The notes: generated by a model not told the origin, from the letters alone. Shown: positions 1-21,003, counted from the stretch's first letter. The stretch: 33,138 bases of DNA from Chloroflexota bacterium (GCA_035299885.1 DATGVV010000460.1:1-33138); one strand, 5' to 3'. Numbers and translations: made by a program.

Positions 1-1052
1 CTTCGGGCGCCGCTTCGGCCAAACCCGCGGCCTCTGGCGTCGCGGCGCCGTCGCTGGCCCCGGTGCCCAAGGTCACGCTGCAGCTGACGAAGCCCCTGCC
101 GGCGCTTAACCCGCCCTACACGGTGAAGGCGCGCGTCGGCAGCTCGCTTACGACGGCGCCTTTCTGGTACGCCATTGAGAAGGGCTACTTCGACCAGCTC
201 GGGCTCAAGTTTGAGGAGGTCCAGATCACGCAATCGGCGGACGTCACGGGGCCGCTGACGCAAGGCCAGATCGATATCGCCGGCGTAGCTTTCGCCCCCG
301 GCCTGTATAACGCCGTCAGCCGTGGCGTCGAGGTGCAAGCCGTGGCCGACAACGGCCAGCTGCAGCCGAACCTCGCGGGCTCGGCGGCAGTCGTCAAGAA
401 GGGCGAGCTGGCCAAATATGGGAACGATTGGTGCGCTCTCAAGGGCAAAAAGATTGCCGGCATGACAAATGTCGACGGCTTCTACGCCACGCTGCTGAAG
501 GCCCTGCAGAGCTGCAACTTGTCTGAAAAGGATGTGGACACGTTCCAGCCCGGTTTCGCTCAGGTCAATGCCGCCCTGGCCAATGGCTCGGCCGACGTTG
601 GCTTCAACGTGGAACCGTTCGTCAGCGCGGGCGTGCAGCAGGGCGTTGTCGAGATCTGGCATCAGGCGGATCAGGCGTGGGCCAACCAGCAGATGAACAT
701 GCTGCTGTACGGGCCGCAGTTCATCAAGAACAAGGACGCCGCGCTGCGCTTCATGGTGGCCTATATGGCTGGCGTGCGGGACTACGACCGCGACATCGCG
801 CCCGGTGGCGACGCCAATCAGTTGGGCACTGTGCTGGCCAAGCATCTGCCGGTCAAGGACCCGAACGCCTATTCCAAGATGATCATGATGGGCATCACCA
901 AAAACGGCGCGGTCAACACGCAAGCCCTCGGTGAGGAGATCCAGCTGTTCCAGAAGTCCGGCACCATCCCGCCTGGCCAGGTCAACCTGAGCTGGGTGAA
1001 CAACGACGTCCGCCAGGAAGCCTTGGACCTTCTCGGACCGGAGAAGAAGTAG
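1..1052 (+). CDS. ABC-transporter substrate-binding protein, NMT1/SsuA/TauA-like (5' partial)
   Basis: ORF track 63..1052. The frame stays open back to nt 3 and reads SGAASAKPAASGVAAPSLAP. This is the same Ala/Ser/Pro tether seen after the lipobox of the paralogue at 7294..8442, so GTG-63 is probably internal and the gene is cut by the window edge. Family call by eye only. Confidence 0.7.
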   Translation, partial: SGAASAKPAASGVAAPSLAPVPKVTLQLTKPLPALNPPYTVKARVGSSLTTAPFWYAIEKGYFDQLGLKFEEVQITQSADVTGPLTQGQIDIAGVAFAPGLYNAVSRGVEVQAVADNGQLQPNLAGSAAVVKKGELAKYGNDWCALKGKKIAGMTNVDGFYATLLKALQSCNLSEKDVDTFQPGFAQVNAALANGSADVGFNVEPFVSAGVQQGVVEIWHQADQAWANQQMNMLLYGPQFIKNKDAALRFMVAYMAGVRDYDRDIAPGGDANQLGTVLAKHLPVKDPNAYSKMIMMGITKNGAVNTQALGEEIQLFQKSGTIPPGQVNLSWVNNDVRQEALDLLGPEKK

Positions 1053-1574
1053 CTAGGCGCGGGCAATGTGGCGGGGCACGAACAGCCCCACCGGCAGGCG
1101 CTGGCCTTTGATGGTGAGCACGGCCTCAAGCACGCTAGTCTCGATCATGGCGGGGTCGTGAATAACCACATACGGGATATTGAGCCCGGCCAGGGTGGCC
1201 TCGCCCACCATACGGCTGGCGCCGTGATAGTCGAACTGCTCACCCAGCACGCGGTTGTGGCTGGCGATGATGAGCAACGGGGTGCGCTGCAACAGCCCGC
1301 GCGCCAGGATCAGGCCGGACATGCCCAGGCCCGAGCCCTCCATGAGGGCCACCGGCAGCTTGCCGCCGAGGTAGGCGCCCATGGCGACAGCGATGCCCTC
1401 ATCCTCGCGCGAACAGATGACCGTCTGGACGTCTGGGTCGGCCTCCAACAACTCGTCGATCGGTGAGAGCAGGCTGTCGGGCACGTAGACGGCGAAATCG
1501 ATTCCGGCCTGCCGCATGGCGCGATGGAAGGCCCGCGCGTTGTCCAGGTTATAGCCAGGGGCTGGCGTGCTCAC
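1053..1574 (-). CDS. TPP-dependent decarboxylase, N-terminal (pyrimidine-binding) half; ComD-like sulfopyruvate/phosphonopyruvate decarboxylase alpha subunit
   Basis: 173 aa. SREDEGIAVAMGAYLGGKLPVALMEGSGLGMSG fits the TPP-enzyme N-terminal domain with its catalytic Glu. Stand-alone size matches ComD. The GTG start overlaps the upstream stop (GTGA at 1571-1574). Confidence 0.75.
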   Translation of the reverse strand: MSTPAPGYNLDNARAFHRAMRQAGIDFAVYVPDSLLSPIDELLEADPDVQTVICSREDEGIAVAMGAYLGGKLPVALMEGSGLGMSGLILARGLLQRTPLLIIASHNRVLGEQFDYHGASRMVGEATLAGLNIPYVVIHDPAMIETSVLEAVLTIKGQRLPVGLFVPRHIARA

Positions 1575-3736
1575 GCCGGCGCCAGCTGCCGTTGTCTCAG
1601 CGCTACATGGACATCCTCGGCCTTCACCGGCAGGTGGTCGATTTTCACGCCCACCGCGTCGTACACCGCGTTGGCATAGGCGGCCGCGAAGGGCAGGTTG
1701 CTCAGCTCAGAGGTTTGCTTGGCGCCGTACGGTCCGGGGCCGGCATCATCGGTGATCAGCAGCAACTCGTGCTCGGGCACATCGCAAATGGTGGGCAGTT
1801 TGTACTCGTGCAGGCCCGCCGCCTCGACTAGGCCATCCACGATCCGCAGATCCTCCATGGCCGCCGCGCCCAGGCCCATTAGCAAGCCGCCTTCTATTTG
1901 GCCCGTAACACCTGTGGCGTTGAGGACCGTGCCCACGTCGTAGGCGCCGGTCACCTTACAGACGTGTACCTGGCCCGTCTCGGGGTCCACCTCAACCTCC
2001 ACCACCTGGGCCACGAAGCTGGTGGTGCTGGGCGGATGCCAGTTCTCGTAGCGGGCTTCAGCGGAAAGGGCGCCGGCCGCCCCGGCGTCGATTTTCTGGC
2101 GCAGCTCCGTGGCTGCTCGGAGCGCCGCCTGTCCGGCGCCGTGGGTGACCGCGCTGGCCGAGCTGCCGCGGTCCCACAACCCCGAATCTGTGCTCAGCAC
2201 CTCGACCCGGATGTGCTCCGGAGGCAGGCCCAGCTCGTTGGCGACGATCTGGGCCAGGATGGTGTGCGCGCCGGAGCCCTGGTCGAACACCGCGATCTGG
2301 AGCGTGACCTCGCCTCCGGCGTCCCGCACGACCCGAGCGGTTGACGCGCCCGGGCCGATGGGGCTCTGGCACAGGGCCAGACCGCGGCCCATGCCCGGCT
2401 TCTTGGGCTCGTCCCAACCGGATGCTCGTCGAACGGCGTCCAGGCATTCCCGCAGCCTGACCGAGGACCATGGCTGGCCTTCGATACCCATGTCCCCAGG
2501 CTGCACGCCGTTCTTCAATCGAAACTCGAAGGGACCCATGCCCAGGGCGCGCGCTAATCGGTCCATCTCGACCTCGCACGGAAACACCGTCTGCAGCCCG
2601 CCGGGCGCGCGCATATGGCCGCAGGGCACCGTGTTGGTGTAGACGATCTGGCTTTCGTAGGCGTGGTTCGGAATGCGGTACACGCCGTGGACGTAGTGCC
2701 CTCCGGCCAGCTCGGCGTTGGCTATCGGCTTGAAGCCGGCATAGGCGCCGCCGGCAAACGTGGCCTTTACGTGGCGGGCCACGATGGTGCCATCGCGCTT
2801 CAGCCCGGTGCGAATCGTCACCCACGCAGGGTGCCGCGGATCGCCGGCCTGCATGTCTTCGACTCCGGAGAGGATGATGCGCACCGGCTGGCCGGCGGCG
2901 CGCGACAGGAAGTAGGCCAGCGGCACATGCATGGGCGAACCCTTGCCGCCGAAATCGCCGCCAACATACAGCGGCTCGACGACGATGCGCTCGGGGGACA
3001 GTTCGAGATCGCGGGCCAGCAGCCCGCGCAGAACGAAAGGCGATTTGGTCGAGGCCCAGACCCGCACCGTCCCGTCCGGCTCGGCGGAGACGATGCAGCT
3101 GTGCGGCTCGATGTAGCCCTGGTGCTGAGCGGGCGTGCGATAGGTGTGCTCGAAGACCACGTCGGCCTCTCTGAACCCGCGCTCCAGATCGCCGCTGACG
3201 GTCAGCCGGTAGGAGCACAGGTTGGGGATATCGGGCAGCGGCTCGTCCGGCCAGCCAGGCTGGCGCAAATCGCGGCGGTAGCTGGCGAAATCGGGGTGCA
3301 GCAGCGGCGCGCCCGGTTTCGTGGCTGCGAAGGGGTCGAGCACGGCCGGCAGTTCCTCGTAGCCCACCTCTATGAGCCGCAGCGCCTCCTCGGCGGTCTG
3401 GCGGTCAACCGCCGCGACAGCCGCCACCGGATCGCCGATGAAGCGCACCCGGTCGGTGCACAGGACTGGCACATCGGCGATAGCTCGCCCGAACAGCGCG
3501 CCCCCGATGTCGGCACCCGTCAGCACCGCCCGCACGCCAGCAAGCGATCGCGCACGGCTGACGTCGACGCGCGCGATGCGAGCGTGGGGCCACGGGCCGC
3601 GCAAGATCGCGCCCCACAAGCAGCCAAGCACATCCACATCCGCCGTATAGGTCGCCTGGCCCGTGACTTTGAGCCGGCCGTCAACCCGGGGCACGGCGGC
3701 GCCAATTGTTGACTCGCCGTCCGCGTAGGACCTCAA
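1571..3736 (-). CDS. xanthine dehydrogenase/aldehyde oxidase-family molybdopterin-binding large subunit
   Basis: Tracked ORF is 1571..3895. PRVDGRLKVTGQATYTAD near the N-terminus and VGGDFGGKG mid-protein are typical of CoxL/XdhB-type Moco subunits. The first 53 tracked codons overlap the hydrolase gene. I place the start at TTG 3736, which shares bases with the hydrolase TGA (TTGA), giving 721 aa. Confidence 0.8.
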   Translation of the reverse strand: MRSYADGESTIGAAVPRVDGRLKVTGQATYTADVDVLGCLWGAILRGPWPHARIARVDVSRARSLAGVRAVLTGADIGGALFGRAIADVPVLCTDRVRFIGDPVAAVAAVDRQTAEEALRLIEVGYEELPAVLDPFAATKPGAPLLHPDFASYRRDLRQPGWPDEPLPDIPNLCSYRLTVSGDLERGFREADVVFEHTYRTPAQHQGYIEPHSCIVSAEPDGTVRVWASTKSPFVLRGLLARDLELSPERIVVEPLYVGGDFGGKGSPMHVPLAYFLSRAAGQPVRIILSGVEDMQAGDPRHPAWVTIRTGLKRDGTIVARHVKATFAGGAYAGFKPIANAELAGGHYVHGVYRIPNHAYESQIVYTNTVPCGHMRAPGGLQTVFPCEVEMDRLARALGMGPFEFRLKNGVQPGDMGIEGQPWSSVRLRECLDAVRRASGWDEPKKPGMGRGLALCQSPIGPGASTARVVRDAGGEVTLQIAVFDQGSGAHTILAQIVANELGLPPEHIRVEVLSTDSGLWDRGSSASAVTHGAGQAALRAATELRQKIDAGAAGALSAEARYENWHPPSTTSFVAQVVEVEVDPETGQVHVCKVTGAYDVGTVLNATGVTGQIEGGLLMGLGAAAMEDLRIVDGLVEAAGLHEYKLPTICDVPEHELLLITDDAGPGPYGAKQTSELSNLPFAAAYANAVYDAVGVKIDHLPVKAEDVHVALRQRQLAPA

Positions 3737-4563
3737 TGGTCCAGAAAGTCCAGCACCAGCCGGTTGAACTCGCCGGCGTGCTCCACCTGCGCCCAGTGGC
3801 CGCAATGGGAGAAGACGTGCATGCGCGCGTTCTGGAACGAGCGCAGCATCAGCAAACCCACATCCAGCGCTCCGAAACGATCGTCTGCGCCCCACACGAT
3901 CAGGGCGGGGCAGGCCACCTTGGGGAGCTGGCTGGCCAGGCTCTCGCCAGCGGGCGGATGGGCGGTCATCACCCTCACGACATCGGGATCGATGCTGGCC
4001 TGGTAGCGCTCCTCGAGGATGTCTTCGGTCAGGAAGGACGAGTCGTACAGCAGCGTCTGCAGCAGGGTCCGCAGCTTCTCGCGAGAGGGGCCCTCGCCCT
4101 TGTAGTAGCCGCCGATAAGCTTAATGCCTTCCAGCGGCATAGGGCAGAACAGGCTCGGACTGCCTGTGCCGCTACCGATCACCACCAGCTTACTGACACG
4201 TTCGGGGCTGTCGGTTGCGAGCTTGATGGCCACCTGGCCGCCCATCGAGTTGCCGACGAAATGCGCCTTGTCGATGCCCAGCTTGTCCATGAAGTCGCGG
4301 AAGACGTTGGCGCAGTAGGTCAGCCGCCCGCCCTCGATGATGACCTTGGCCGAGCCGCCATACTGCGGCATGTCGACCAGCAGCGCCCGGTACTTGGCCG
4401 CGAAGGCATCGGCGTTCTGCTTGAAGTTGCTCCAGCTGCTGGCTCCAGGGCCGGCGCCGTGGATCATGATCACCGGATAGCCGGAGCCAACCTCGTTGTA
4501 ATGGATTTTGATGCCGGCCGCCTGGATATCGCGGCTGGTGGCTTGCTCGCTGCTGATGGCCAT
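3733..4563 (-). CDS. alpha/beta-fold meta-cleavage-product (C-C bond) hydrolase, CarC/BphD/MhpC-like
   Basis: 276 aa. HGAGPGASSW oxyanion region and GNSMGG nucleophile elbow. The Asp in WGADDRF and the His in SHCGHW complete a Ser-Asp-His triad. GAGGAA Shine-Dalgarno about 5 nt upstream of ATG 4563. Confidence 0.85.
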   Translation of the reverse strand: MAISSEQATSRDIQAAGIKIHYNEVGSGYPVIMIHGAGPGASSWSNFKQNADAFAAKYRALLVDMPQYGGSAKVIIEGGRLTYCANVFRDFMDKLGIDKAHFVGNSMGGQVAIKLATDSPERVSKLVVIGSGTGSPSLFCPMPLEGIKLIGGYYKGEGPSREKLRTLLQTLLYDSSFLTEDILEERYQASIDPDVVRVMTAHPPAGESLASQLPKVACPALIVWGADDRFGALDVGLLMLRSFQNARMHVFSHCGHWAQVEHAGEFNRLVLDFLDH

Positions 4564-4592
4564 GGGATTCCTCTTCGAAGACTAGGTCTCCT

Positions 4593-5768
4593 ATGATGCA
4601 CATATTGGAAGAAGATGCTGTGCTGAGCACCGGCGGCAAGCCATGGCAGCCGTACCTCGAGGCGGCGCTCGGTTTTCGGAACCACTGGTACCCCGCCTGC
4701 TACAGCCATGAGCTGGCCGAGGGCCAGGCCCGCGGCGAGCAGCTGTTGGGCGAAAGGCTGCTCCTGAAGCGCATTGACGGCCGTGTGTACGCGGTACAGG
4801 ACCGCTGCCTTCACCGGGGCGTGGCCTTCTCAGTGCGGCCGGAGTGTCACAGCAAGAACACCATCAGCTGCTGGTATCACGGCTTCACCTATGACCTGCG
4901 CGACGGATCGCTGGTCGCGGTCATCACCGATCCCGAAAGCTCGCTGGTCGGCAAGCTCCGCCTGCAGACATACCCGGCGCAGGAGCACAAGGGCCTCGTC
5001 TTCGTCTTCATCGGCGACATGGATCCGCCCGAGCTGAAGCTGGACCTGCAGCCCGGCTTTCTCGACGCTGATCTGGCCATCCATGCCAACGGTGAGCGGC
5101 AGCTCGTCCACAGCAACTGGCGTCTGGCGGCGGAGAACGGCTTTGACGCGGCGCACATCTACATCCACCGCAACTCGCCGCTGATCCTCGAACAGCGGCG
5201 GCCGCTCCCGCTGGCCACCATCCCGGCTTCTCGCGAGGGGATGGTGGTGGCTGAGGACGGGCAGCCTAAAGGGGTGGTGAAAGGCCGCGGCGCACGCAAG
5301 CCGGTGTGGGAGGTGGAGATCGAGGGAGTGAAGGTCACGTCCCGTTTTCTGCCTGGCCCTGACACCCCGCGCACCTCGCCGGATACTTCCATGTGGCTGC
5401 CGTGCGGGCTCAAGGTCGATCCCTTTCCTACTGAGGGCATCATGCAGTTCGAGTGGTACGTGCCCGTCGACGAGCACAGCCACACCTATTTCGTGACCTG
5501 GGGACGCCGCACCACATCCGATGCGGAGGCTGCCGAGTTCTCGCGCGAGATCGAGGATCACTGGAAGGATCTGGTGGTGGATAAGTTCAACGTGGACGAC
5601 GTTACCGCCCGCGAGGCGATGGAGCGCTTCTACTCAGAAGAGGACGGCTGGCAGCGCGAACGGCTCTACCGTCCCGACCTCATCATTACGGAGTGGCGGA
5701 AGCTGGCCAGCGCCCATAATCGCGGTATCCAGCGGCTATCTGCGCCGCAGTCTGCCGGAGGTGTCTGA
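4593..5768 (+). CDS. Rieske non-heme-iron oxygenase, alpha-only CarAa (carbazole 1,9a-dioxygenase) / OxoO-like terminal oxygenase
   Basis: 391 aa. Rieske CLHRG...CWYHG and mononuclear-iron DAAHIYIH motifs. Blocks along the full length match my memory of Pseudomonas CarAa: LGFRNHWYP, RIDGRVY..DRCLHRGV, SNWRLAAENGFD, WLPCGLKVDPFP, MQFEWYVPVDE, AREAMERFY, WRKLASAHNRGIQ. Confidence 0.9.
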   Translation: MMHILEEDAVLSTGGKPWQPYLEAALGFRNHWYPACYSHELAEGQARGEQLLGERLLLKRIDGRVYAVQDRCLHRGVAFSVRPECHSKNTISCWYHGFTYDLRDGSLVAVITDPESSLVGKLRLQTYPAQEHKGLVFVFIGDMDPPELKLDLQPGFLDADLAIHANGERQLVHSNWRLAAENGFDAAHIYIHRNSPLILEQRRPLPLATIPASREGMVVAEDGQPKGVVKGRGARKPVWEVEIEGVKVTSRFLPGPDTPRTSPDTSMWLPCGLKVDPFPTEGIMQFEWYVPVDEHSHTYFVTWGRRTTSDAEAAEFSREIEDHWKDLVVDKFNVDDVTAREAMERFYSEEDGWQRERLYRPDLIITEWRKLASAHNRGIQRLSAPQSAGGV

Positions 5769-6701
5769 GTGCCACTAGAGCTGGGGCTGGCTTCCTCTCA
5801 CGCCCCCAGCATGTTTGCGCCTGTGGACAAGTGGCCGGCCATTTACGACATCCTGGCCGGCGCCGTCCCGGCCCCGCCGGAGCTGGCCAGCGAGACGCGC
5901 GAGGTCCTGGAGGGCTACGCCGAGCGCATCAAGCACGGCTTCGGCGTGCTGCAGCAGCAGCTGGCGGCCTACAAGCCCGACGCGCTGGTCATTGTGGGCG
6001 ACGATCAGAACGAGGTGTTTGGGCCAGCCTTCAATGCCTCGATGGCCATCTTCCTGGGCGAGGAGGTCTCGGGCTCGACAAGCATTGGCTTTTTAGGTGA
6101 GCCGCTGGACAAGAACCACCTCCACTTCCGCTGCCATCGAGAGCTGGCCGAGGTGCTGCTGGCCCGGCTGGTGGAGCAGGGCTTCGACCTGGCCTGGATG
6201 CGCGAGCTAAAGCCAATCAGCCGGCCGCTGGCTGGCATCGGGCACGCCTTCAGCCGGCCCGCCAACGCCGTCGGCGTGCGCGAGCTGGATATCCCCATCG
6301 TGCCCCTGTTCCTCAATGCCTACGACCATCCGATGCCATCCGCGCGCCGCTGCCACGAGCTCGGAAAGGCGATCCGGCAGGCATTCGACGGCCGGCCCGA
6401 GCGCATCGCGCTGTATGCCTCGGGTGGGCTGGCCCACGATCCACGCGGGCCCCGTTCAGGCTGGCTGGACGAGCCATTGGACAGGTGGGTGCTGTCGCGG
6501 CTTGAGGACGGTCGTGCGGCGGAGCTTACCAGTCTGTTCACCTTTGATTCGGACGCGGTCCGCAGCGGCACGGGCGAGATCCGCAGCTGGATCACCGCCG
6601 CGTCGGCGTTCGAGGGCCAACCCGCCACGGTCGTGGACTATATTCCCGCCCGGCATGCCGTCACCGGCCTAGCCTTTGCCTACTGGCCGGCCTCCGCCTG
6701 A
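5769..6701 (+). CDS. class III (LigB-superfamily) extradiol ring-cleavage dioxygenase, single-subunit MhpB/CarBb-like
   Basis: 310 aa. The GTG start is the nucleotide right after the Rieske TGA. LigB landmarks: ASSHAP, GIGHAFSRP, ASGGLAHDP, GTGEIRSW. No LigA/CarBa-like small-subunit ORF lies next to it. Confidence 0.8.
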   Translation: MPLELGLASSHAPSMFAPVDKWPAIYDILAGAVPAPPELASETREVLEGYAERIKHGFGVLQQQLAAYKPDALVIVGDDQNEVFGPAFNASMAIFLGEEVSGSTSIGFLGEPLDKNHLHFRCHRELAEVLLARLVEQGFDLAWMRELKPISRPLAGIGHAFSRPANAVGVRELDIPIVPLFLNAYDHPMPSARRCHELGKAIRQAFDGRPERIALYASGGLAHDPRGPRSGWLDEPLDRWVLSRLEDGRAAELTSLFTFDSDAVRSGTGEIRSWITAASAFEGQPATVVDYIPARHAVTGLAFAYWPASA

Positions 6702-6711
6702 CGGCCCGCCC

Positions 6712-7290
6712 GTGAACCGCATCGAGTGCATCGAGGTCTTCGCCAGGCTTCGAGGCAGGGCAATCGTCATCGTGAGCCCCGGCTACACCGGCCACGAGCT
6801 GGCCGCCGCGGGGCATGACGACGCGACCATCTACAACATGGACATGCCGTACAGCTCACCCTTGTGCCTGGGCCTGGCGTTGGCCTGCTCGCAGGAGCGC
6901 GTGGTCGCCCTGGAAGGCGACGGCTCCATGCTTATGGCGCTGGGTGTGCTGACCACCATTGGCCGCTACCAGCCCCGGAACCTGGCAATCATCGTCTTCG
7001 ACAACCGCCTCTATCTGACCACGGGCAGTGGCACTGTGCGGACAGCCGAGGTCGATTTCGCCGCCATGGCTCGCGCTGCCGGTATCGAGCGCTCATGCAA
7101 GGTCGAGGACATCTCCGGCTTTGAAGACGCCGCTCGGCAGGCTCTCACCGAGCCTGGGCCGTGGTTCATCTGCGCCTCGGTGGATGGTTCCGACCGCGGC
7201 GATCCGCGAGGCCGAGCACACCTCCCCGGCGACCTGGTCGAACAGGCCGTACTGTTTCAAAAGGCGCTGCGAGAGCGCCAGGGAGATTGA
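6712..7290 (+). CDS. TPP-dependent decarboxylase, C-terminal (pyrophosphate-binding) half; ComE-like beta subunit
   Basis: Tracked ORF is 6676..7290. I prefer GTG 6712, which is in frame and 10 nt after the upstream stop. LEGDGSMLMALGVLTTIGRYQPRNLAIIVFDN is the GDG-x(24-27)-N TPP/Mg motif. Confidence 0.75.
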   Translation: MNRIECIEVFARLRGRAIVIVSPGYTGHELAAAGHDDATIYNMDMPYSSPLCLGLALACSQERVVALEGDGSMLMALGVLTTIGRYQPRNLAIIVFDNRLYLTTGSGTVRTAEVDFAAMARAAGIERSCKVEDISGFEDAARQALTEPGPWFICASVDGSDRGDPRGRAHLPGDLVEQAVLFQKALRERQGD

Positions 7291-7293
7291 TGC

Positions 7294-8442
7294 CTACTGC
7301 TTGGCCAGCGCCTCGTGCAGCGGGCCATAGTCGACGATCTGCTCGGGTTTGAGGTCAGTCTTGGTGCCGGTGATCTCGGCTTGGATGTCCAGCGCCTGCT
7401 GAAGGCCCCGCGGCGAGGCTTCGAACGTGTCCTGCTCCAGGTTGGGGATCATCTTCTCGGCGGTGCGCTTGGCCGCATCGGGTGGCGCGCCGATGTACTT
7501 GACGATCAAGTCCCCCGTCTCGGCCGGGTGCGCCTTGATCCAGCGGTTGGCGTCGATCAGCGCCCGCAGAAAGCGGACGGTCTCGTCCCGATGGGCGCTC
7601 AGGTAGGACACGCTGCTGCCGGCGCCGATGTACGGCAGGTCCAGCAGATCGCCTAGGAACTGGATCTCATGAAATCCAGCCAGCTCAGCCTGAGCGTCGA
7701 AAGGCGGTGACACGACGGCCGCATCCACCTGGCCGGCGATCAGGTTTTGGTAGGTCAGGACAGTGCCGCCCGAGGACACGATGTGGACGTCGTTCTTGGT
7801 GAGGCCGGCCTTCTTGAGGCCGGTCTCCAGGTAGATATAGGGCGTGCTGCCCGCCTGGTTAGTGCCGACTGGCCTGCCTTTGAGCTGTGCCACCGAGGTG
7901 ATCTCCTTCTTGCCCACCAGCGTCCAGGGCGAGCGCTGCCAGGCGGAGAAGATGACCTTGAGCGGCAGCCCGCGGGTGGCGCCCTCAATGGCGTTCGTGG
8001 GCGCGTCGATGATGTCGGTCTCGCCTTTGGAGAGTGCGGTGATCGACACGCTGGGCGGCATCATGTACTGGGTGACCTTGATGTGCTGCTGCTGGAAGAA
8101 GCCCTGCGCCAGCGCGGCATAGTAGGGCATCTCGGATGCCGCCGGCGACGCGTAGCTGACACGAACGGGCGAGCCGTTGGGATCGCCGCCCGAGAACTGG
8201 CCGGTCGCCTCCGGTTTGCCCGCGGCGGGGCCACTGGCGCCCGCGCTCGCGGACGCCGCGGGTTTGGCCGGGGCTGGGCTCGAGGCCGCCACGACGCTGG
8301 GTTTCGGGCTCGCGGCTGCTGAGGCCGCCGGCTGCGCACCCGCGCTTGACGGGGCGGCGGCGGGCGCCTGCTGGCCGCACCCCGCCGCAAGCAGCAATAA
8401 GGCACCCACTAACGGCGTCAGCCGGCTCGGCGTAGTTCTCAC
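7294..8442 (-). CDS. lipoprotein, ABC-transporter substrate-binding protein (NMT1/SsuA/TauA-like)
   Basis: 382 aa. Signal peptide with lipobox LLLLAAGCG, then about 70 aa of Ala/Ser/Pro low-complexity tether, then an SBP body. GAGAGGTGAG Shine-Dalgarno upstream of GTG 8442. Paralogue of the CDS at 1..1052. Confidence 0.8.
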   Translation of the reverse strand: MRTTPSRLTPLVGALLLLAAGCGQQAPAAAPSSAGAQPAASAAASPKPSVVAASSPAPAKPAASASAGASGPAAGKPEATGQFSGGDPNGSPVRVSYASPAASEMPYYAALAQGFFQQQHIKVTQYMMPPSVSITALSKGETDIIDAPTNAIEGATRGLPLKVIFSAWQRSPWTLVGKKEITSVAQLKGRPVGTNQAGSTPYIYLETGLKKAGLTKNDVHIVSSGGTVLTYQNLIAGQVDAAVVSPPFDAQAELAGFHEIQFLGDLLDLPYIGAGSSVSYLSAHRDETVRFLRALIDANRWIKAHPAETGDLIVKYIGAPPDAAKRTAEKMIPNLEQDTFEASPRGLQQALDIQAEITGTKTDLKPEQIVDYGPLHEALAKQ

Positions 8443-8445
8443 ATC

Positions 8446-9399
8446 TCACCTCTCAAGCGATTTTTGCGCCGGGCGCACGTGGATGGCAAAATCGGCCACG
8501 CCGCGGGTCAGGTCGAACGCGGGCTTGTAGCCGAGGTCCGACTGGGAGCGAGTCAAGTCCAGCCGCTGCTCATGACGCCAAAAGGGCCCCTGCACCGGCT
8601 CCGGCAGGACCTCGACTTTGGCGCCCGGCACAGCCGCTCGAATGGCGGCCGCCACGTCCTCCGAGGTGGACAACCGGCCCGAGCCTAGGTTATATACCTC
8701 GTGGCGCAGCGGCCGCTCACAAGCAAGCATCACGCCAAAGGCTACATCCTCCACGTAGACGTAATCGTTCGTGCTCAGGACGCCTGGATCCAGCTGCACG
8801 GGCTGGCCGGCAAGCGCCTCCGCCAGCGCGGCGTGCATGGCGGGCCCAGCGGCGTCGCCGCCGGCGTAATGTCCTAGCCCATAGACCTGGGCGAAGCGGA
8901 GGATGGCGAACTCTAAGCCATACCAGCTGGCGAAGGCGGCCAGGATGCGCTCGCAGGCGATCTTGCTCGCAGCATAAAAACGAGTGCCCCCGATGGGGAA
9001 GTCTTCGGTGATCGGCTCAGCCGGCGACAGGTCCCAGCGATAGATGCCGAACGTGCTGGCAAACAGCAAGCGTTTGACCCCGCTGAGCCTGGTCGCTTCG
9101 GCGAGCGCCATCGCCCCATCGACGTTTGCGCTCATCCCGGCATGAGGATGCTCGTTGATGCGTGACCCGATCAGAAACGCCGAATGGAACACCACGTCGG
9201 GAGCGCAGCCGCGCATGCAGTCGATGAGCGTAGGCAGATCCCGGACGTCACCCTCGACGAGTTCAGCCGCGGACGTGATGCTGGCGATGTAGTCTCGGCG
9301 CGGCGCCACGTCATAGAGCACGGCCTTGTGGCCGCGCTCCGCCAGCAGGCGGGCCAGGTGACAGCCTACCAGGCCTGCGCCGGTGATGAAAATGTTCAC
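8446..9399 (-). CDS. NAD-dependent epimerase/dehydratase (extended SDR)
   Basis: 317 aa. N-terminal ITGAGLVGCHLARLL Rossmann motif and YAASK (YxxxK) catalytic motif. Confidence 0.85.
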   Translation of the reverse strand: MNIFITGAGLVGCHLARLLAERGHKAVLYDVAPRRDYIASITSAAELVEGDVRDLPTLIDCMRGCAPDVVFHSAFLIGSRINEHPHAGMSANVDGAMALAEATRLSGVKRLLFASTFGIYRWDLSPAEPITEDFPIGGTRFYAASKIACERILAAFASWYGLEFAILRFAQVYGLGHYAGGDAAGPAMHAALAEALAGQPVQLDPGVLSTNDYVYVEDVAFGVMLACERPLRHEVYNLGSGRLSTSEDVAAAIRAAVPGAKVEVLPEPVQGPFWRHEQRLDLTRSQSDLGYKPAFDLTRGVADFAIHVRPAQKSLER

Positions 9400-9411
9400 C
9401 GGGTGAACCAG

Positions 9412-10536
9412 CTAAACGGCTACCGCCATGCCGTACAGGGCGGCGCAGTTATCCCACAGGATCTTGCGCTTGTGCTCGTCCGCAATGGGCAGCTGCATGA
9501 AGTGATCGGCGGAGTGCGGAAAATGGGCGTCCACGTGCGGGTAGTCGGTGGAGTAAACGATGTTGTCGCTGCCCATGGCCTCGACGACCCACTTCACCGG
9601 GTGCTCCTCGGAATCGACCGACACGTAGCACTGGCGCTTGAAGTACGCGCTGGGCGGCATCGTCAGATCGGGCGACCAGACGTCGGCGAACATCTCGGCG
9701 TGCTCGTCGAGGCGCCACAGCAACCACGGCAGCCAGCTGCAGTTGCCCTCCAGGAAGGCAGCCCGCAGCTTGGGGTGGCGCTCCAGCACGCCGCCGCCGC
9801 ACATTGCCGCCAGGGCCATCATCTGCTCCACCGGGTGGGAGAAGGTGTGGCGCAGCATGAAGCTGGGCTCGAACTGCTCCCCCACCTGGCGCTCGGCTGA
9901 CGAGTTGGACTCGTGGAAGCCGACCGGCACGTCCAGCCGCTCGAGCGCCGACCACAGCGGGTCGTAGTAGGGGTCGTGCCAGTTGCGGCCGTTGACGACG
10001 TTGGCCCGCAGGAACACGCCGCGGAAACCCAGATCGCGCACGCAGCGCTCCGTCTCGGCTACGGCGTCGCCGACATCGAACGGCGAGATCATGCCGACGC
10101 CGATCAGCCGGTTGCGATCCGCCGCGCAGAAGTCATACAGCCAGTTGTCGTAGGCGCGTGCCAAGGCGGCAGCGGAATCGGGCGCCAGGTCACCCCGGGC
10201 CAGCGTGTGCAGGCCGCGGGTGGGGTACAGCAGGGCGACGTCGATGCCCTCGCGATCCATGGCCTCGAGCTGCACTTCGGACGTCCAGCCGCGCTCCTGG
10301 TCCGGACCGTAGCGGGCCTGGTCCTCGGCGAACTTGTGACCGCTGCGTGGGCCGGGCGGCTCGGCTGGACGTCCCCACGGCCGCCCCTCGGCATCCACCA
10401 TGGCCAGGTCGCGCACCCAGCGCTGAAGGCCGATGGGCGCCTGCTCGCGGTAGTCCGGCTCGGTGTAGCGCTGCCACAGGTCGGGCGGCTCCATGACGTG
10501 CATGTCGCTGTCTAGGATCCTGAAACCGTTCTTCAT
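9412..10536 (-). CDS. amidohydrolase-2 family metal-dependent hydrolase/decarboxylase (ACMSD/LigW/LigJ/lactonase-type)
   Basis: 374 aa. ILDSDMHVMEP N-terminal metal motif, FHES mid-protein and STDYPHVD near the C-terminus, as in PF04909-type enzymes. Confidence 0.85.
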   Translation of the reverse strand: MKNGFRILDSDMHVMEPPDLWQRYTEPDYREQAPIGLQRWVRDLAMVDAEGRPWGRPAEPPGPRSGHKFAEDQARYGPDQERGWTSEVQLEAMDREGIDVALLYPTRGLHTLARGDLAPDSAAALARAYDNWLYDFCAADRNRLIGVGMISPFDVGDAVAETERCVRDLGFRGVFLRANVVNGRNWHDPYYDPLWSALERLDVPVGFHESNSSAERQVGEQFEPSFMLRHTFSHPVEQMMALAAMCGGGVLERHPKLRAAFLEGNCSWLPWLLWRLDEHAEMFADVWSPDLTMPPSAYFKRQCYVSVDSEEHPVKWVVEAMGSDNIVYSTDYPHVDAHFPHSADHFMQLPIADEHKRKILWDNCAALYGMAVAV

Positions 10537-10537
10537 T

Positions 10538-11506
10538 TCATGCCTCCGGATGGGTGCTGATGTATTTGGCGGCCTGCTCGGCGTCCACGCCGGAAGTCCG
10601 CAGGCTGACGCCGGCGGCTTCCTCCTGGAGCTGGTAGGTCACGGTGTAGCCGGAGCCCTCGCCCCAGCCACGGTTGAGCGCTTCCACGATGATCTGCTCG
10701 ACCACGCTGCTGACCGGCAGCGGCACATCGAGCTCCCGGCCGAGCGCGGTAGCCAGGCCGATGTCCTTGCGCAGCAGGGTGAGCGTGAAGGTGGCCGGCT
10801 CGTAGCGGCCGGGAAACACGCTGCGTGGGACCTGGTCGTGGAGCATGTGCATGCGGCCGACCAAACCTCGCCGAACGGCCTCCCACAGGACACGCACGTC
10901 CACTCCGGCTTTTACTCCCAGCGACAAGCCTTCGGCGATGGCCTGTGTGACGCCGCAGCCAATGAGCTGATGGACGAGCTTGCAGATGCTGGCGCTGCCG
11001 ACCGGGCCGGTGTAGATGATCTGGTCGCCGTAGGCCGCCAGGATGGGCCGGATGCGCTCGACGATCGCCTGCTCGCCGCCGATCATGATCTCGTGGATGC
11101 CCGGCGGTGAGTCGGGCTGGCCGGCGCTGACCGGGGCGTCCATGGCCCAGGCGCCCTTCTCACGGAAGCGCTCGGCGATGCGCCGGATGAGGTCCGGCCC
11201 GCCGGTCGAGATGTCCAGGTACACGCCGTCGGGCCGGATACCTTCCAGCACACCGCCCGGCCCGAGGGCCGCATCTTCCACGATCCTCGGCGTGGGCAGG
11301 GCACTGATGACGACGTCCGAGCGCTCCGCGACGCCGGCCGGCGAGGCAGCGCGCTCGGCGCCCCTTTCGAGGAACGGGCGCATGGCCTCCTCGCGCGTGT
11401 CATACACGATCATCGGGAAACCGGCCGCCTGGATATGGCCAGCCACCGGGCCACCCATCTTGCCGAGGCCGACGAAACCGACCGTCTCCATGTGCGCCCT
11501 TATCAT
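10538..11506 (-). CDS. NAD(P)-dependent beta-hydroxyacid dehydrogenase (3-hydroxyisobutyrate dehydrogenase family)
   Basis: 322 aa. VGFVGLGKMGGPVAGHI dinucleotide fold at the N-terminus. An alternative ATG at 11491 (METVGFVGLG) has AAGGG 5 nt upstream and may be the true start. The stop is 1 nt from the next gene's ATG. Confidence 0.85.
   Translation of the reverse strand: MIRAHMETVGFVGLGKMGGPVAGHIQAAGFPMIVYDTREEAMRPFLERGAERAASPAGVAERSDVVISALPTPRIVEDAALGPGGVLEGIRPDGVYLDISTGGPDLIRRIAERFREKGAWAMDAPVSAGQPDSPPGIHEIMIGGEQAIVERIRPILAAYGDQIIYTGPVGSASICKLVHQLIGCGVTQAIAEGLSLGVKAGVDVRVLWEAVRRGLVGRMHMLHDQVPRSVFPGRYEPATFTLTLLRKDIGLATALGRELDVPLPVSSVVEQIIVEALNRGWGEGSGYTVTYQLQEEAAGVSLRTSGVDAEQAAKYISTHPEA
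11501..11506 (+). promoter_or_regulatory. -10-like hexamer TATCAT, 9 nt upstream of ATG 11516 (possible leaderless or near-leaderless transcript)
   Basis: Hexamer read directly. No SD lies between it and the ATG. Only 9 nt separate the divergent start codons. Confidence 0.3.
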
Positions 11507-11515
11507 GCACTAACC

Positions 11516-12388
11516 ATGGCCGACCTCAGTTTGGAGGACCTCGGCGCGCTGCTCGACGAGAAGCTGCGGCCGATTGCCACGAAGCTGGACGAGCACGCGA
11601 AAAAGCTGGATCAGCACGGCCAGCGTCTCGATGCTATGACGGCCGAACCGCGCCAGCGATCTCTGAAACCGCTGCTGGTGGCGTTTTCGGCCGTCGCGGC
11701 GGTGGTGGTTCTGGCGCTCGCCGGCCGCGTAGTCCTGGGGACCTTCAATGGCGGCGCGGGCCAGTCCTCGGCAGCTACGGCGCCACGGCTGCTGTACGCC
11801 GACGACTTCTCCAGTTCGGCGAACGGTCTCTTCCTGGAGGGTCAACGCGGAATAGCCACGCTGCCCGGCGATCGCGCGTCGGCGGCGTGGGACTATGCCT
11901 ATCAAGACGGTGCTCTGGTGGCGCACGTGACCGCGCCCAGCTTGCCGCTGCAAGGGCGAGTCATCGGCGGGGCTGCCCGAGCGGCCAATCGCCTCACCGG
12001 CGACTTCGCCTTCGAGGTCAAGGCCAAGGCCGCCACCTCGGCCGTGTACGCGTTGTACGGGCTGCGGTTCTTTCCCGGCAGCCGCGAGTTCGGCTTTGGC
12101 ATTCAGCCCGGCCAGAAGAGCTATCAGGTGTGGGAAATCTTCCAACCGCCGTTCCTGGTGGCGCGCAGTAACGCGGTCGAACCGGGCGAAGCGGAGAACC
12201 TGCTGCGGCTGGAGCTGCGCGGCAATGCCATGCGGCTGTTCATCAATGGCCAGGAGATCGATGGCCGCCAGGACGAAGCGTTCGGCGTCCGTCCGGCCTC
12301 GGTGGGAGTGCTGTTCGACACGCGGGCGATGCCCAACGAGGCTCCGGTGGAGATTCGCTTCAGAGACTTCAAGGTCTATTCGTTGTGA
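11516..12388 (+). CDS. membrane-anchored hypothetical protein: N-terminal coiled segment, one TM helix, C-terminal LamG/DUF1080-like beta-sandwich
   Basis: Tracked ORF is 11435..12388. The ATG at 11516 avoids overlap with the divergent gene. LLVAFSAVAAVVVLALAG is a TM helix. The C-terminal LRLELRGNAMRLFINGQEIDG resembles the concanavalin-like DUF1080 signature (by eye). Its stop overlaps the next start (GTGA). Confidence 0.6.
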   Translation: MADLSLEDLGALLDEKLRPIATKLDEHAKKLDQHGQRLDAMTAEPRQRSLKPLLVAFSAVAAVVVLALAGRVVLGTFNGGAGQSSAATAPRLLYADDFSSSANGLFLEGQRGIATLPGDRASAAWDYAYQDGALVAHVTAPSLPLQGRVIGGAARAANRLTGDFAFEVKAKAATSAVYALYGLRFFPGSREFGFGIQPGQKSYQVWEIFQPPFLVARSNAVEPGEAENLLRLELRGNAMRLFINGQEIDGRQDEAFGVRPASVGVLFDTRAMPNEAPVEIRFRDFKVYSL

Positions 12389-13356
12389 GCCAGGTGATCG
12401 CCTACCGCCTGCAGCCGTGGGAATTCGTCGATCGGCTCGTCTATGACATGTGTCCCAGCGGCTTCGAGATCGTGCCCCTGGCGAGGGACGCTTCGCCGGA
12501 GGATCGGGAGCAGAAGCTGGCCGGCGCGGATTTCCTGATGGGCTCGTGGGTGACCACCGCCGTGACGCTGACGGAGGCCGACTTCCGCGCAGCCAAGCGT
12601 CTCAAGCTGGTGCAACTCATGAGCGCCGGCTACGAGCACATCGACCTGGAGCTGGCCGCGCGGTATGGCGTGCCGGTGGCGCACTTTGGCGACGCCATGG
12701 CAAGCACCGTAGCCGAGCACACGCTGCTGCTGATCCTGGCCGTGCACCGGCGTTTGCTCCAGCTCGACGCGGCGGTCCGCTCGGGGAAGTGGCGCACGGG
12801 CGAGCCGCCGCTGTCCGAGCTGCGCGGCAAGCAGGTGGGCATTGTCGGCTTCGGGTTGATCGGCCGCGAGGTGGCCAAGCGCGTCCGCGCCTTCGACGCC
12901 GAGATCGCGTACTTTCAGCGCCACCGCCTGGACGATGCGGCCGAGCGAGCTATCGGCGTCCGCTACTTGCCGCTGGACGATCTGCTGTCGAGCAGCGACG
13001 TGGTCAGCCTGAACGTGCCCATCAGCAGCTCGACCCGGCACCTCATCGGTGCTCGCGAGCTGGCACTGATGAAACACGGCGCGGTGCTCATCAACGTCAG
13101 CCGCGGGGTGGTGGTCGACGAAGCGGCCCTGCGCGAGGCGCTGGAGCAGGGGCGTCTGCGCGGAGCCGGCCTGGACGTGTTGGAGCAGGAGCCGCCCGAC
13201 ACGGTTAACCCGCTGCTCAGGCTGGACAACGTGGTGTTCTCGCCGCACAACGCGGGCTCCTCGGTGGAGGTTTGGCCCCGAGTCGTGGCCGCCTCCTTCG
13301 CCAACATCGAGCGGGTCGCCCGCGGCGAGCCGCCTCAGAACCTGGCCCATAAGTAA
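12385..13356 (+). CDS. D-isomer-specific 2-hydroxyacid dehydrogenase
   Basis: 323 aa. GIVGFGLIGREVAKR NAD motif, NVSRGVVVDEAAL, GAGLDVLEQEP and SPHNAG (Arg/Glu/His catalytic set). Confidence 0.85.
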   Translation: MSQVIAYRLQPWEFVDRLVYDMCPSGFEIVPLARDASPEDREQKLAGADFLMGSWVTTAVTLTEADFRAAKRLKLVQLMSAGYEHIDLELAARYGVPVAHFGDAMASTVAEHTLLLILAVHRRLLQLDAAVRSGKWRTGEPPLSELRGKQVGIVGFGLIGREVAKRVRAFDAEIAYFQRHRLDDAAERAIGVRYLPLDDLLSSSDVVSLNVPISSSTRHLIGARELALMKHGAVLINVSRGVVVDEAALREALEQGRLRGAGLDVLEQEPPDTVNPLLRLDNVVFSPHNAGSSVEVWPRVVAASFANIERVARGEPPQNLAHK

Positions 13357-13514
13357 GACTGACAGGCTGCAAAATGCTAGGCTGAAGGCCTAGAAGCGAG
13401 GCCGAAATAGGCGTAAGCCGGCCCAGGCGGCCACGAGCCAGGCTGCCCTGCCTCGAGGAAATGGGCCGCCGATGGTTTTCGGCTGAACTTCTAAGCTGTA
13501 AGCGGAGGTTCGGC

Positions 13515-14735
13515 ATGGCAACCACCCAGGAACAGAACGAGCGACTGACCCGCGTCGGGCCCGGCACGGCGATGGGCGATCTGCTGCGCCGCTACTGGCA
13601 GGTGGTGGGCACCGCGACCGAGCTCGAGCAGGAGCCGGTGCAGCGGGTGCGGCTGCTCGGCGAAGACCTCACGCTGTTCCGCACCGAGCGCGGCGAGTAC
13701 GGCCTGGTGGACGAGGTGTGCCCACATCGCTGCATGTCACTGGAGTACGGCATTCCGCAGGAGGCCGGCCTGCGCTGCGCCTATCACGGTTGGCTGTGGG
13801 CGCCGGACGGCCACTGCCTGGAGCAGCCATTCGAGGAGACGGTCAACCCCGAAGCGCGGTTCAAGGACAAGGTCCGCATCAAGGCCTACCCGGCCCAGGA
13901 GCTAGGTGGGCTCATCTTCACCTACATGGGCCCGCGGCCCGCGCCGCTGCTGCCCCGCTGGGATGTGCTCGTCCGCGATGACTTGGACGCGGCCATCGAG
14001 ATTCACCCGCTGCCCTGCAGCTGGCTGCAGTGCATGGACAATTCCATGGACCCGGTTCACTTCGAGCACCTGCACGCCGTGTTCGGTAACTATCAGCGCA
14101 AGAAGCTGGGCATGCCGCCGGCTATGTTCCCGGCCAAGCACATCAAGATCGGCTTCGATCGCTTCGAGTACGGCATCATGAAGCGCCGCCTCCTCGAGGG
14201 CGAGCCGGAGGATATCGACGATTGGCAGATCGGTCACCCGGTGCTGTTCCCGAACACCCTGGCGGTGGGCGAAGAGGACCGGCCGATGCTCCAGATCCGC
14301 ATCCCGGTGGACGACACGACCACGCTCCACCTGCAGTACGTGACCACCCCGCGCGAGATGGGCGCGCCGCGCAAGCCGGTCCCGGTCGTGCGCCGGTCGC
14401 TGTTCGAGCCGGACGGCAAGATCTTGGCCGTCAACATCCCCAAGCAGGACGAGCTGGCGTGGGTTGCGCAGGGGCCAATCTCACAGCGCACGCGCGAGCA
14501 CCTGGGGGCGAGCGACGTGGGCGTGATCCTGTATCACAAGATGCTGCATGAAGAGATGGACAAAGTGCAGGGTGGACAGGATCCCCTCGGCACTGTGCGC
14601 GATCCCGCGGTCAACGAGCCAATGATCCGCATCCGGCGCGAGCGAGTTGGCTACGAGGCCTTCAAGGGCGACTTCGAGGAGGAGTGGAACGACATCGAAG
14701 GCGCGCGTTCCCTCTTCGCCGCGGCCAAGGCCTAG
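13515..14735 (+). CDS. Rieske non-heme-iron oxygenase alpha subunit (KshA/VanA/LigXa-like, alpha-only type)
   Basis: Tracked ORF is 13461..14735. ATG 13515 has GGAGG 7 nt upstream. CPHRC...CAYHGW Rieske motif and CMDNSMDPVHFEHLH iron site. Confidence 0.85.
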   Translation: MATTQEQNERLTRVGPGTAMGDLLRRYWQVVGTATELEQEPVQRVRLLGEDLTLFRTERGEYGLVDEVCPHRCMSLEYGIPQEAGLRCAYHGWLWAPDGHCLEQPFEETVNPEARFKDKVRIKAYPAQELGGLIFTYMGPRPAPLLPRWDVLVRDDLDAAIEIHPLPCSWLQCMDNSMDPVHFEHLHAVFGNYQRKKLGMPPAMFPAKHIKIGFDRFEYGIMKRRLLEGEPEDIDDWQIGHPVLFPNTLAVGEEDRPMLQIRIPVDDTTTLHLQYVTTPREMGAPRKPVPVVRRSLFEPDGKILAVNIPKQDELAWVAQGPISQRTREHLGASDVGVILYHKMLHEEMDKVQGGQDPLGTVRDPAVNEPMIRIRRERVGYEAFKGDFEEEWNDIEGARSLFAAAKA

Positions 14736-20710: not shown

Positions 20711-21003
20711 TCCGCGTCGTGCTTCCGGCGCACCTGCGGACGCTGGCGCACATCAACGGCGAGGTGCAGCTCCAGATTAACGGCCAGGTCACGCAGGGCA
20801 CGGTGCTCGACGCGCTGGAGGCGTCATATCCGATGCTGCGGGGGACGATGCGGGACCAGCTCACGAGGAAGCGCCGAGCGTTCGTTCGGTTCTTCGCCTG
20901 CGAGCAGGACGTGTCGCACGATCCACCGGATACGCCACTGCCGGAGGCGATTGCGGCGGGCAAGGAGCCGTTTCTGATCGTTGGAGCCATCGCTGGCGGT
21001 TAG
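20707..21003 (+). CDS. MoaD/ThiS-like ubiquitin-fold (beta-grasp) protein with C-terminal Gly-Gly
   Basis: 98 codons hidden at the 3' end of tracked ORF 19867..21003. GTG 20707 overlaps the propeller TGA (GTGA). It starts [14 protein letters not shown] and ends [10 protein letters not shown]-stop, the layout of sulfur-carrier/Ubl proteins. Confidence 0.75.

Follow-up and report, generated by a model that had tools for sequence, protein, structure and literature searches.

Why do the two halves of one predicted enzyme lie 5 kb apart on opposite strands, and what does that enzyme do? The question arises near one end of a 33,138-nucleotide stretch of DNA from a member of the Chloroflexota (GCA_035299885.1, DATGVV010000460.1:1-33138), called here, over its whole length, the window. 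It encodes a putative thiamine pyrophosphate (TPP)-dependent decarboxylase as two separate genes, designated alpha and beta. Comparison with related loci shows that this locus is a rearranged member of an uncharacterized, widely distributed catabolic module, for which the nearest described system is the lumichrome/quinoxaline pathway of 2025. By analogy with that pathway, and with confidence somewhat better than even, we favor the interpretation that alpha and beta make up a heteromeric TPP decarboxylase of a lumichrome-like module, acting on an N-heterocyclic carboxylate, and that the gene layout has been rearranged in one Chloroflexota lineage.

Gene order at the locus

Gene calls for the window were made from a listing of open reading frames (ORFs), with support from G+C content at third codon positions (GC3), together with Pfam and NCBIfam scans. 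The features surrounding the two halves are as follows.

<1..1052, plus strand: SBP1, an NMT1/SsuA-type solute-binding protein (Pfam NMT1, E = 1e-14), truncated by the window edge and convergent on alpha
1053..1574, minus strand: TPP decarboxylase alpha half, pyrimidine-binding TPP_N domain, 173 residues (PF02776, E = 1e-7; TIGR03845, 72.5 bits)
1571..3736, minus strand: large subunit of a molybdenum cofactor (Moco) hydroxylase of the xanthine oxidase family, 721 residues from TTG at 3736 (Ald_Xan_dh_C, MoCoBD_1, MoCoBD_2)
3733..4563, minus strand: meta-cleavage-product (MCP, C-C bond) alpha/beta hydrolase, first gene of the minus-strand string (NCBIfam: HsaD, E = 4e-80; BphD, E = 2e-72)
4564..4592, no strand: divergent spacer of 29 bp with the perfect palindrome TCTTCGAAGA, read from the sequence
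4593..5768, plus strand: homotrimeric Rieske oxygenase of the CarAa/OxoO type (Aromatic_hydrox, PF11723, E = 6e-74), first gene of the plus-strand string
5769..6701, plus strand: LigB-type (class III) extradiol ring-cleavage dioxygenase (PF02900, E = 5e-20)
6712..7290 (alternative start TTG 6676), plus strand: TPP decarboxylase beta half, pyrophosphate-binding TPP_C domain (PF02775, E = 1e-16)
7294..8442, minus strand: SBP2, an NMT1/SsuA-type lipoprotein solute-binding protein (PF09084, E = 6e-21), convergent on beta
8446..11506, minus strand: three tightly packed genes upstream of SBP2, encoding a short-chain dehydrogenase/reductase (SDR)/epimerase, an Amidohydro_2 protein (LigW/ACMSD-like), and a 3-hydroxyisobutyrate-dehydrogenase-like protein (Pfam; PDB matches PtmU3, LigW, ACMSD)

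The minus-strand string runs hydrolase, Moco subunit, alpha, and the plus-strand string Rieske, LigB, beta. Each half is terminal in its own string because a convergent NMT1-type binding protein gene abuts it, with 0 nt between the stops of alpha and SBP1 and 3 nt between those of beta and SBP2. Junctions read from the sequence are tight: the Moco stop and alpha start overlap in GTGA, the hydrolase stop and Moco start overlap in TTGA, the LigB GTG comes directly after the Rieske TGA, and the beta GTG at 6712 lies 10 nt past the LigB stop. The hydrolase ATG (4563) and Rieske ATG (4593) have 29 bp between them. An earlier, sequence-only reading of this DNA had described the TPP halves as ending two divergent operons, and its domains, coordinates, TTGA and GTGA overlaps, and 29-bp gap between starts were all reproduced; the gene order and tight packing stand, and operon status is suggested by spacing alone. 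For the Moco subunit, the longest ORF begins at 3895, and the coupled TTG at 3736 suits homolog lengths of 708 to 750 residues. The start of beta is ambiguous, TTG 6676 or GTG 6712, giving a protein of 192 to 204 residues.

Alpha and beta as probable partners

To place the locus among its relatives, 27 alpha homologs were aligned and alpha motifs were scanned against one genome per GTDB species, which yielded 49 loci; contigs encoding close homologs supplied 13 further loci, and the window's proteins were mapped onto all loci by tblastn.

Alpha carries TPP_N and beta TPP_C, each as a polypeptide of its own, and a middle domain is lacking. In this they resemble RhiE/RhiF (PDB 9iz3) and ComD/ComE, which are likewise heteromers split into TPP_N and TPP_C and which share with the window's proteins the catalytic Glu and the GDG...N motif. 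These are the nearest solved and named relatives, although identity is low and scores lie far under the family cutoffs; the closest solved structures are those of the heteromeric phosphonopyruvate decarboxylase RhiE/RhiF (alpha to 9iz3_A, E = 2e-8; beta to 9iz3_B, E = 2e-10). The REDEG motif, with catalytic Glu57, is invariant in the alpha alignment. Over 52 loci, those with separated halves included, the REDEG Glu of alpha and the EGDGS...N motif of beta, the latter in the Mg-diphosphate form GDG-X(~26)-N, are at least 90% conserved.

The two genes also behave as a pair. Pairwise distance matrices for alpha and beta are correlated with r = 0.91 (52 loci with both genes), and every locus long enough to show both contains one nearby alpha/beta pair. 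Among 1.84 billion representative proteins, searched exhaustively, 133 relatives were found at E <= 1e-10. Proteins P0200, P0201, P0205, P0211, P0214 and P0317, at 376 to 410 residues, carry the alpha domain at the C-terminus, and P0200 is a natural beta-alpha fusion (beta at 1-195, alpha at 242-406) whose domain order is the reverse of that in fused phosphonopyruvate decarboxylases and matches the gene order beta>alpha at loci L030 and L051. Indirect evidence of these kinds argues strongly that alpha and beta are two subunits of one heteromeric TPP-dependent decarboxylase and would pair physically. The proposal that these ORFs are halves of one enzyme of the ComDE/RhiEF type is thereby upheld by Pfam and NCBIfam domains, by catalytic motifs, and by RhiEF as the nearest structure; so is the expectation that such halves are usually adjacent or fused, with alpha>beta adjacent in 41 of the 52 paired loci and fusions known.

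It is most improbable that the halves are not partners, each pairing with a half encoded elsewhere or acting alone. Separate transcription of the two, and a view of no more than 33 kb of the genome, would leave room for this, but the whole 33-kb window holds a single alpha and a single beta with no second TPP_N or TPP_C copy, and the consistent co-occurrence, the co-varying trees, and the fused forms all speak for partnership, as does the finding for the comparable pair LumK/LumL that LumK is insoluble unless LumL is co-expressed (PMC12746152).

Scores against named models bear on what the enzyme does. Alpha scores 72.5 bits against TIGR03845 (sulfopyruvate decarboxylase alpha; cutoff 147.95), beta scores 124 bits against NF004813 and 102.2 bits against TIGR03846 (cutoff 221.5), and scores against TIGR03297 (phosphonopyruvate decarboxylase; cutoff 312.5) are 41 and 99 bits. 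A genuine sulfopyruvate or phosphonopyruvate decarboxylase, working in sulfonate or phosphonate metabolism with SsuA-like binding proteins, would agree with TIGR03845/6 and TIGR03297 being the best named NCBIfam models, with the labels that JGI gives to homologs, and with the NMT1/SsuA-family binding proteins that flank both halves. The scores, however, are far under the equivalog cutoffs, and the window's ORFs include neither a phosphoenolpyruvate (PEP) mutase nor a sulfoacetaldehyde acetyltransferase (Xsc), nor any family of coenzyme M synthesis or of sulfolactate/sulfoacetaldehyde metabolism. The conserved neighbors are aromatic and heterocycle oxygenases, so that the setting is one of aromatic or heterocycle catabolism, whereas RhiE/RhiF and ComD/ComE serve phosphonate or coenzyme M biosynthesis. 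We regard this assignment as very unlikely.

A gene module in at least eight phyla

The same gene set (alpha, beta, Moco subunit, CarAa-like Rieske, LigB, and MCP hydrolase) occurs in about 50 loci from at least eight phyla. The Moco, Rieske, LigB and hydrolase genes lie within 10 kb in most loci (tblastn, 49 GTDB plus metagenome loci). Clustering of ORFs over 48 loci, with Pfam applied to cluster representatives, gave these family counts.

TPP beta: 40 loci
Moco large subunit: 35 loci
LigB: 32 loci
CarAa-like Rieske: 30 loci
TPP alpha: 27 loci, an undercount, some having been missed by ORF picking
MCP hydrolase: 25 loci
Divergent M20-like protein: 24 loci
SBP_bac_8 binding protein: 22 loci
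Fused ATP-binding cassette (ABC) permease: 22 loci
ABC ATPase: 15 loci
Fer2_2: 9 loci
DHO_dh: 8 loci
Isochorismatase: 7 loci
FAD subunit: 5 loci
FAA_hydrolase-type hydratase: 5 loci
DmpG aldolase: 3 loci

Often found with the core are M20-like amidohydrolase, ABC transporter, DHO_dh-like flavoenzyme and isochorismatase-type hydrolase genes, and several Chloroflexota loci also carry FmdA_AmdA formamidase genes. In Binatia and Verrucomicrobia the module forms a single operon in the order hydrolase, M20-like, Rieske, LigB, alpha, beta, solute-binding protein, permease, Moco. Across phyla, the Moco gene is the one found most consistently in the alpha/beta transcription unit, ahead of the hydrolase, and its stop and the start of alpha share 4 bp in the Chloroflexota clade. 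Judged by its gene neighborhoods, the alpha/beta enzyme is a predicted member of an uncharacterized catabolic module widespread in soil bacteria.

The neighbors have recognizable relatives in PDB. For the Rieske oxygenase these are carbazole 1,9a-dioxygenase (E = 3e-114) and 2-oxoquinoline 8-monooxygenase (E = 2e-84), for LigB gallate dioxygenase and MhpB (E about 1e-11), and for the hydrolase BphD (E = 1e-70), MhpC (E = 2e-62), and also HsaD. The window resembles the car and quinoline/2-oxoquinoline (qor/oxo) systems in its CarAa/OxoO-type Rieske oxygenase, the mhp and car pathways in its LigB dioxygenase, with MhpB among the top PDB matches, and in its BphD/MhpC/CarC-type hydrolase, and quinoline 2-oxidoreductase (qor) in having a Moco hydroxylase. 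Unlike the window, the car, qor/oxo and mhp pathways have no TPP enzyme. The CarAc/CarAd ferredoxin and reductase and the OxoR partner have no counterparts at the window, and the small and medium subunits of the three-subunit bacterial Moco hydroxylase are missing from the window locus.

In most loci of the Chloroflexota clade (L005, L057, L061 and L063, for example), a class-2-like DHO_dh gene lies directly upstream of the Moco gene with a 4-bp overlap.

Where the halves lie in other loci

In 41 distinct loci, from Methylomirabilota/Rokubacteria, Binatia, Verrucomicrobia, Alphaproteobacteria, Eremiobacterota, Armatimonadota, a 'Firmicutes' metagenome-assembled genome and some Chloroflexota, alpha and beta are adjacent and co-directional in the order alpha>beta, with 5 to 75 bp between aligned segments. 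The order beta>alpha, again co-directional, is found in two distinct loci (L030 and L051). Nine loci in the tree have the halves on opposite strands, as do L063/L064 and a JGI contig represented without its DNA, all of them belonging to one Chloroflexota clade of the alpha tree, with alpha 65 to 100% identical to that of the window. Within this clade, the layouts are as follows.

Layout a, the commonest: DHO_dh> Moco> alpha> <beta, with beta divergent from hydrolase> (L005, L008, L010, L057, L060, L061, L063/L064, and the P0039 contig)
Layout b: alpha> NMT1> <beta, with beta divergent from hydrolase> (L003)
Layout c: <beta <Rieske, with Rieske divergent from hydrolase> Moco> alpha> <NMT1 (L001/L002, alpha 88% identical to that of the window)
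Layout d: <Rieske divergent from alpha> <Moco, with no beta on the 4.9-kb contig (L065/L066)

The window has layout c with LigB added between Rieske and beta, a position at which LigB is missing in L001; L062 (alpha 89% identical) fits layout c as far as its contig reaches. A divergent beta/hydrolase pair is common to the whole opposite-strand clade. In L061 (8001-9078), alpha and beta converge and their 3' ends overlap by 17 bp, a convergent 3' overlap being noted for L060 too, and in both loci a gene for a UbiD-family decarboxylase follows the hydrolase.

Comparative genomics thus answers whether the arrangement is a one-off rearrangement: it is not, given that L001/L002 share it. The mirrored placement nevertheless fails as a conserved arrangement, for it is one of four or more layouts within one Chloroflexota clade and is absent from 43 other loci. 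The variety of layouts within the clade shows the separation to be real and recurrent, yet a derived shuffle rather than a designed mirror. It is a lineage-specific loosening of linkage, recurring in independent samples and persisting through much divergence.

The sequence-only reading had gone further, proposing that placement at the two ends forces co-expression of both arms and that the substrate is a 2-oxo acid arising from ring fission, such as a 2-oxopent-4-enoate derivative. Both halves are indeed terminal in tightly packed strings that start 29 bp apart, and the two strings may be co-regulated, but end placement adds nothing past the trivial need for both subunits, and the spacer, like the layout, is not conserved. 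A ring-fission 2-oxo acid is not the best candidate substrate either. The usual enzymes for 2-hydroxypentadienoate, the hydratase and/or the DmpG aldolase, are encoded at loci in Binatia, Dehalococcoidia and Alphaproteobacteria, and alpha/beta are linked more tightly to the transporter and, tightest of all, to Moco than to the hydrolase. Taken as a whole, this combination of substrate and mirrored control is unlikely.

Of the 29 bp of spacer, 20 bp, including the 10-bp palindrome, are an insertion without counterpart in L001/L002, where the spacer is 9 bp. A shared operator at the palindrome was considered and dropped, the palindrome not being conserved in L001. A promoter scan found no sigma-70-like site in or near the 29-bp spacer; because the spacer is so short, promoters would lie inside the adjoining coding regions, or the mRNAs would be leaderless. 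Rfam and tRNA scans of the window gave no matches, and hence no TPP riboswitch near the binding protein genes.

Two steps would lead from layout a to that of the window, relocation of a block and then insertion of a cassette. An ancestral alpha>beta pair would first have turned convergent, producing the Moco> alpha> <beta order, with beta divergent from hydrolase>, that characterizes layout a. The beta/hydrolase block would then have moved in front of Moco, after which a cassette of Rieske, with or without LigB, would have been inserted between beta and hydrolase. By tblastn, in a comparison with L005/L008 and with L031/L021, the window's Rieske protein shows 65% identity to alphaproteobacterial copies and 36% to layout-a copies of its own clade, while its LigB shows 55 to 57% identity to Binatia copies and 27% to layout-a copies of its own clade. 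Being nearer to other phyla than to its own clade, the oxygenase cassette looks foreign, and these identities suggest that it was swapped or acquired.

Lumichrome catabolism as a precedent

No described pathway combining these enzymes was known to the sequence-only reading, but one now exists: lumichrome catabolism, reconstituted in Nocardioides simplex (PMC12746152, ACS Cent Sci, November 2025), combines enzymes of these types. There the ring-amide hydrolases LumH/I/M take the pyrimidine ring apart. The quinoxaline carboxylic acid that results is similar to a 2-oxo acid in its C=N-C(COOH) unit, and it is decarboxylated by LumK/LumL, a TPP enzyme built of two subunits (about 20 + 23 kDa) in a 1:1 ratio. 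The carbon freed in this way is hydroxylated by the xanthine-oxidase-like LumJ, after which a Rieske dioxygenase breaks open the hetero-ring, leaving a catechol that an extradiol dioxygenase cleaves and hydrolases finish; the product of the Rieske step bears an oxalamide (carboxyformamido) group, a 2-oxo-acid-like function. The authors state that, apart from this case, TPP decarboxylases of two subunits had been known solely from the biosynthesis of rhizocticin and of coenzyme M (PMC12746152).

The module shares with the LumK/L cluster a two-subunit TPP enzyme together with a Moco hydroxylase, a ring-opening Rieske oxygenase, an extradiol dioxygenase and hydrolases. The Lum cluster also has several ring-amide hydrolases, with which the isochorismatase, M20, Amidohydro_1, formamidase and DHO_dh proteins of the related loci may be compared. 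Since the module holds every Lum enzyme type, plus accessories of ring-amide type, we infer the same reaction logic. In a scheme whose step order is modeled on LumK/L, LumJ, LumABCD and LumE in succession, the TPP enzyme would remove the carboxylate from an electrophilic ring carbon beside N of an N-heterocyclic acid, the Moco enzyme would hydroxylate the freed C-H, the CarAa-type oxygenase would attack beside N and open the hetero-ring to give a catechol, LigB would cleave the catechol, and the hydrolase would cut the fission product.

The systems also differ. LumJ is a single fused protein of 140 kDa, whereas the window has the Moco large subunit only. The Lum Rieske enzyme consists of alpha and beta subunits and has a dedicated ferredoxin and reductase; that of the window is a CarAa-type homotrimer with no redox partners nearby. 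The Lum P450 and the LumH/W/X/Y set have no counterparts in the window, and the names of the LumK and LumL genes suggest that they are adjacent, in contrast to the window halves on opposite strands.

Several points count against a lumichrome-like role. LumCD and LumE belong to other Rieske and extradiol families than CarAa and LigB, and the likeness to Lum is an analogy of enzyme types and shared Pfam domains. The GTDB scan with two alpha motifs yielded no locus from Nocardioides or Pimelobacter, so LumK is unlikely to be closely related. The best solved relative of the Moco protein is 4-hydroxybenzoyl-CoA reductase alpha (E = 2e-97), not an N-heterocycle hydroxylase, and KDH of the nicotine pathway comes next. 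The [2Fe-2S] (Fer2_2) and FAD (FAD_binding_5) subunits expected with it are absent from the window and from loci of the Chloroflexota clade; in other phyla Fer2_2 lies beside Moco in nine loci and the FAD subunit in five, and in the Chloroflexota these subunits may be encoded elsewhere in the genome. No Rieske ferredoxin or reductase was found among the window's ORFs, where the sole flavoprotein reductase is NDH-2-like (20981-22243). Finally, the substrate is proposed as a class only, and the evidence names no single compound.

The tight Moco-alpha linkage suits equally well a decarboxylase followed by an aldehyde oxidase. A classical 2-oxo-acid decarboxylase might act on an aryl-glyoxylate, an aryl-pyruvate, or an N-aryl-oxamate formed after ring opening, its aldehyde or formamide product being oxidized by a Moco aldehyde oxidoreductase or hydrolyzed by a formamidase. 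The aldehyde oxidoreductases PaoC and MOP are among the Moco protein's PDB relatives, the formamidase genes of several Chloroflexota loci would have a role, and the oxalamide group on the Lum Rieske product is just such a 2-oxo-acid-like function (PMC12746152). No locus, however, has aromatic side-chain genes (a transaminase or a mandelate-type set), and the match of beta to benzoylformate decarboxylase is weak (E about 1e-3). The accessory ring-amide hydrolases (isochorismatase, M20, Amidohydro_1 and DHO_dh) point instead to a heterocycle dismantled before decarboxylation, as in Lum. We consider this account plausible, though the less likely of the two, and retain decarboxylation of an N-heterocyclic carboxylate as the preferred reading.

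A broader form of that reading is offered tentatively, with confidence well short of even. The module, present in at least eight mostly uncultured soil phyla, might constitute an undescribed pathway for a natural N-heteroaromatic carboxylate, such as a quinoxaline-, quinoline- or pteridine-type acid or a benzo-fused orotate-like acid. Alpha/beta would then represent a second and far more widespread family of TPP heterocycle decarboxylases, and the Chloroflexota Moco protein would work without Fe-S and FAD subunits, perhaps in partnership with the DHO_dh-like flavoprotein transcribed along with it. Nothing relevant emerged from literature searches on clusters for kynurenate, quinaldate or quinoline that include a TPP enzyme.

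Distant split TPP enzymes

A plasmid search with alpha found relatives only about 35% identical, one of which sits in an unrelated coenzyme A (CoA)-type context. Another distant split-TPP pair, with alpha about 35% identical, comes from a cultured organism, on plasmid pRt932 of Rhizobium tumorigenes (L058; NZ_CP117262.1 321737-340150). Its neighbors encode a guanine deaminase, a BMP-family ABC transporter, Rieske proteins, an amidohydrolase, a Moco protein of 1048 residues, a (2Fe-2S) protein and a GMC oxidoreductase. This context indicates that the association of split TPP enzymes with Moco and Rieske proteins is broader than one family, and the pRt932 cluster may be experimentally tractable for the study of split TPP enzymes in N-heterocycle catabolism.

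PDB entries 9u8q, 9u8r and 9u8s were considered as structures of LumK/L and rejected, a search with chain A (mostly rebuilt) leading to a Kitasatospora/Streptomyces/Micromonospora family, not to Nocardioides. The protein, 92% identical to one from Kitasatospora, is a heteromeric split TPP enzyme, another case of this rare architecture, and probably a natural-product enzyme.

Other genes of the window

The SBP1 frame is open back to base 3, and the gene, listed as 63-1052, is thus cut by the window edge; bases 1-62 encode an Ala/Ser/Pro-rich linker resembling that of SBP2. A counterpart of SBP1, 79% identical, adjoins alpha in L001, and SBP2 has weak homologs in several related loci. The three-gene block at 8446..11506 may be accessory to the module; it is not conserved beside the module in other loci. 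Its Amidohydro_2 gene (9412-10536) was considered as a pyrone hydrolase like LumW or LigI and rejected, its relatives being PtmU3, LigW and ACMSD-type enzymes.

The region covered by the window is rich in oxidative catabolic genes. Two further Rieske oxygenases (13461-14735 and 28665-29858) are of another type, with a LigXa_C-like C-terminal domain, and there are two D-2-hydroxyacid dehydrogenases (12385-13356 and 23827-24852). An Nramp transporter gene lies in two ORFs (22433-23095 and 23155-23799) that cover profile positions 2-156 and 183-356, reflecting either a pseudogene or a frameshift or assembly error.

Implications

Across branches of this one family, the genes for the subunits of an obligate heteromer can be unlinked, inverted, re-ordered or fused, and a single mirrored layout such as that of the window calls for caution against reading design into such placement. 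The first report of a TPP enzyme decarboxylating a heterocycle dates from late 2025 and concerns one actinomycete (PMC12746152). If our reading is true, the same chemistry would be common in soil Chloroflexota, Binatia, Methylomirabilota, Eremiobacterota, Verrucomicrobia and Alphaproteobacteria, and a defined six-gene core would be available for substrate discovery.

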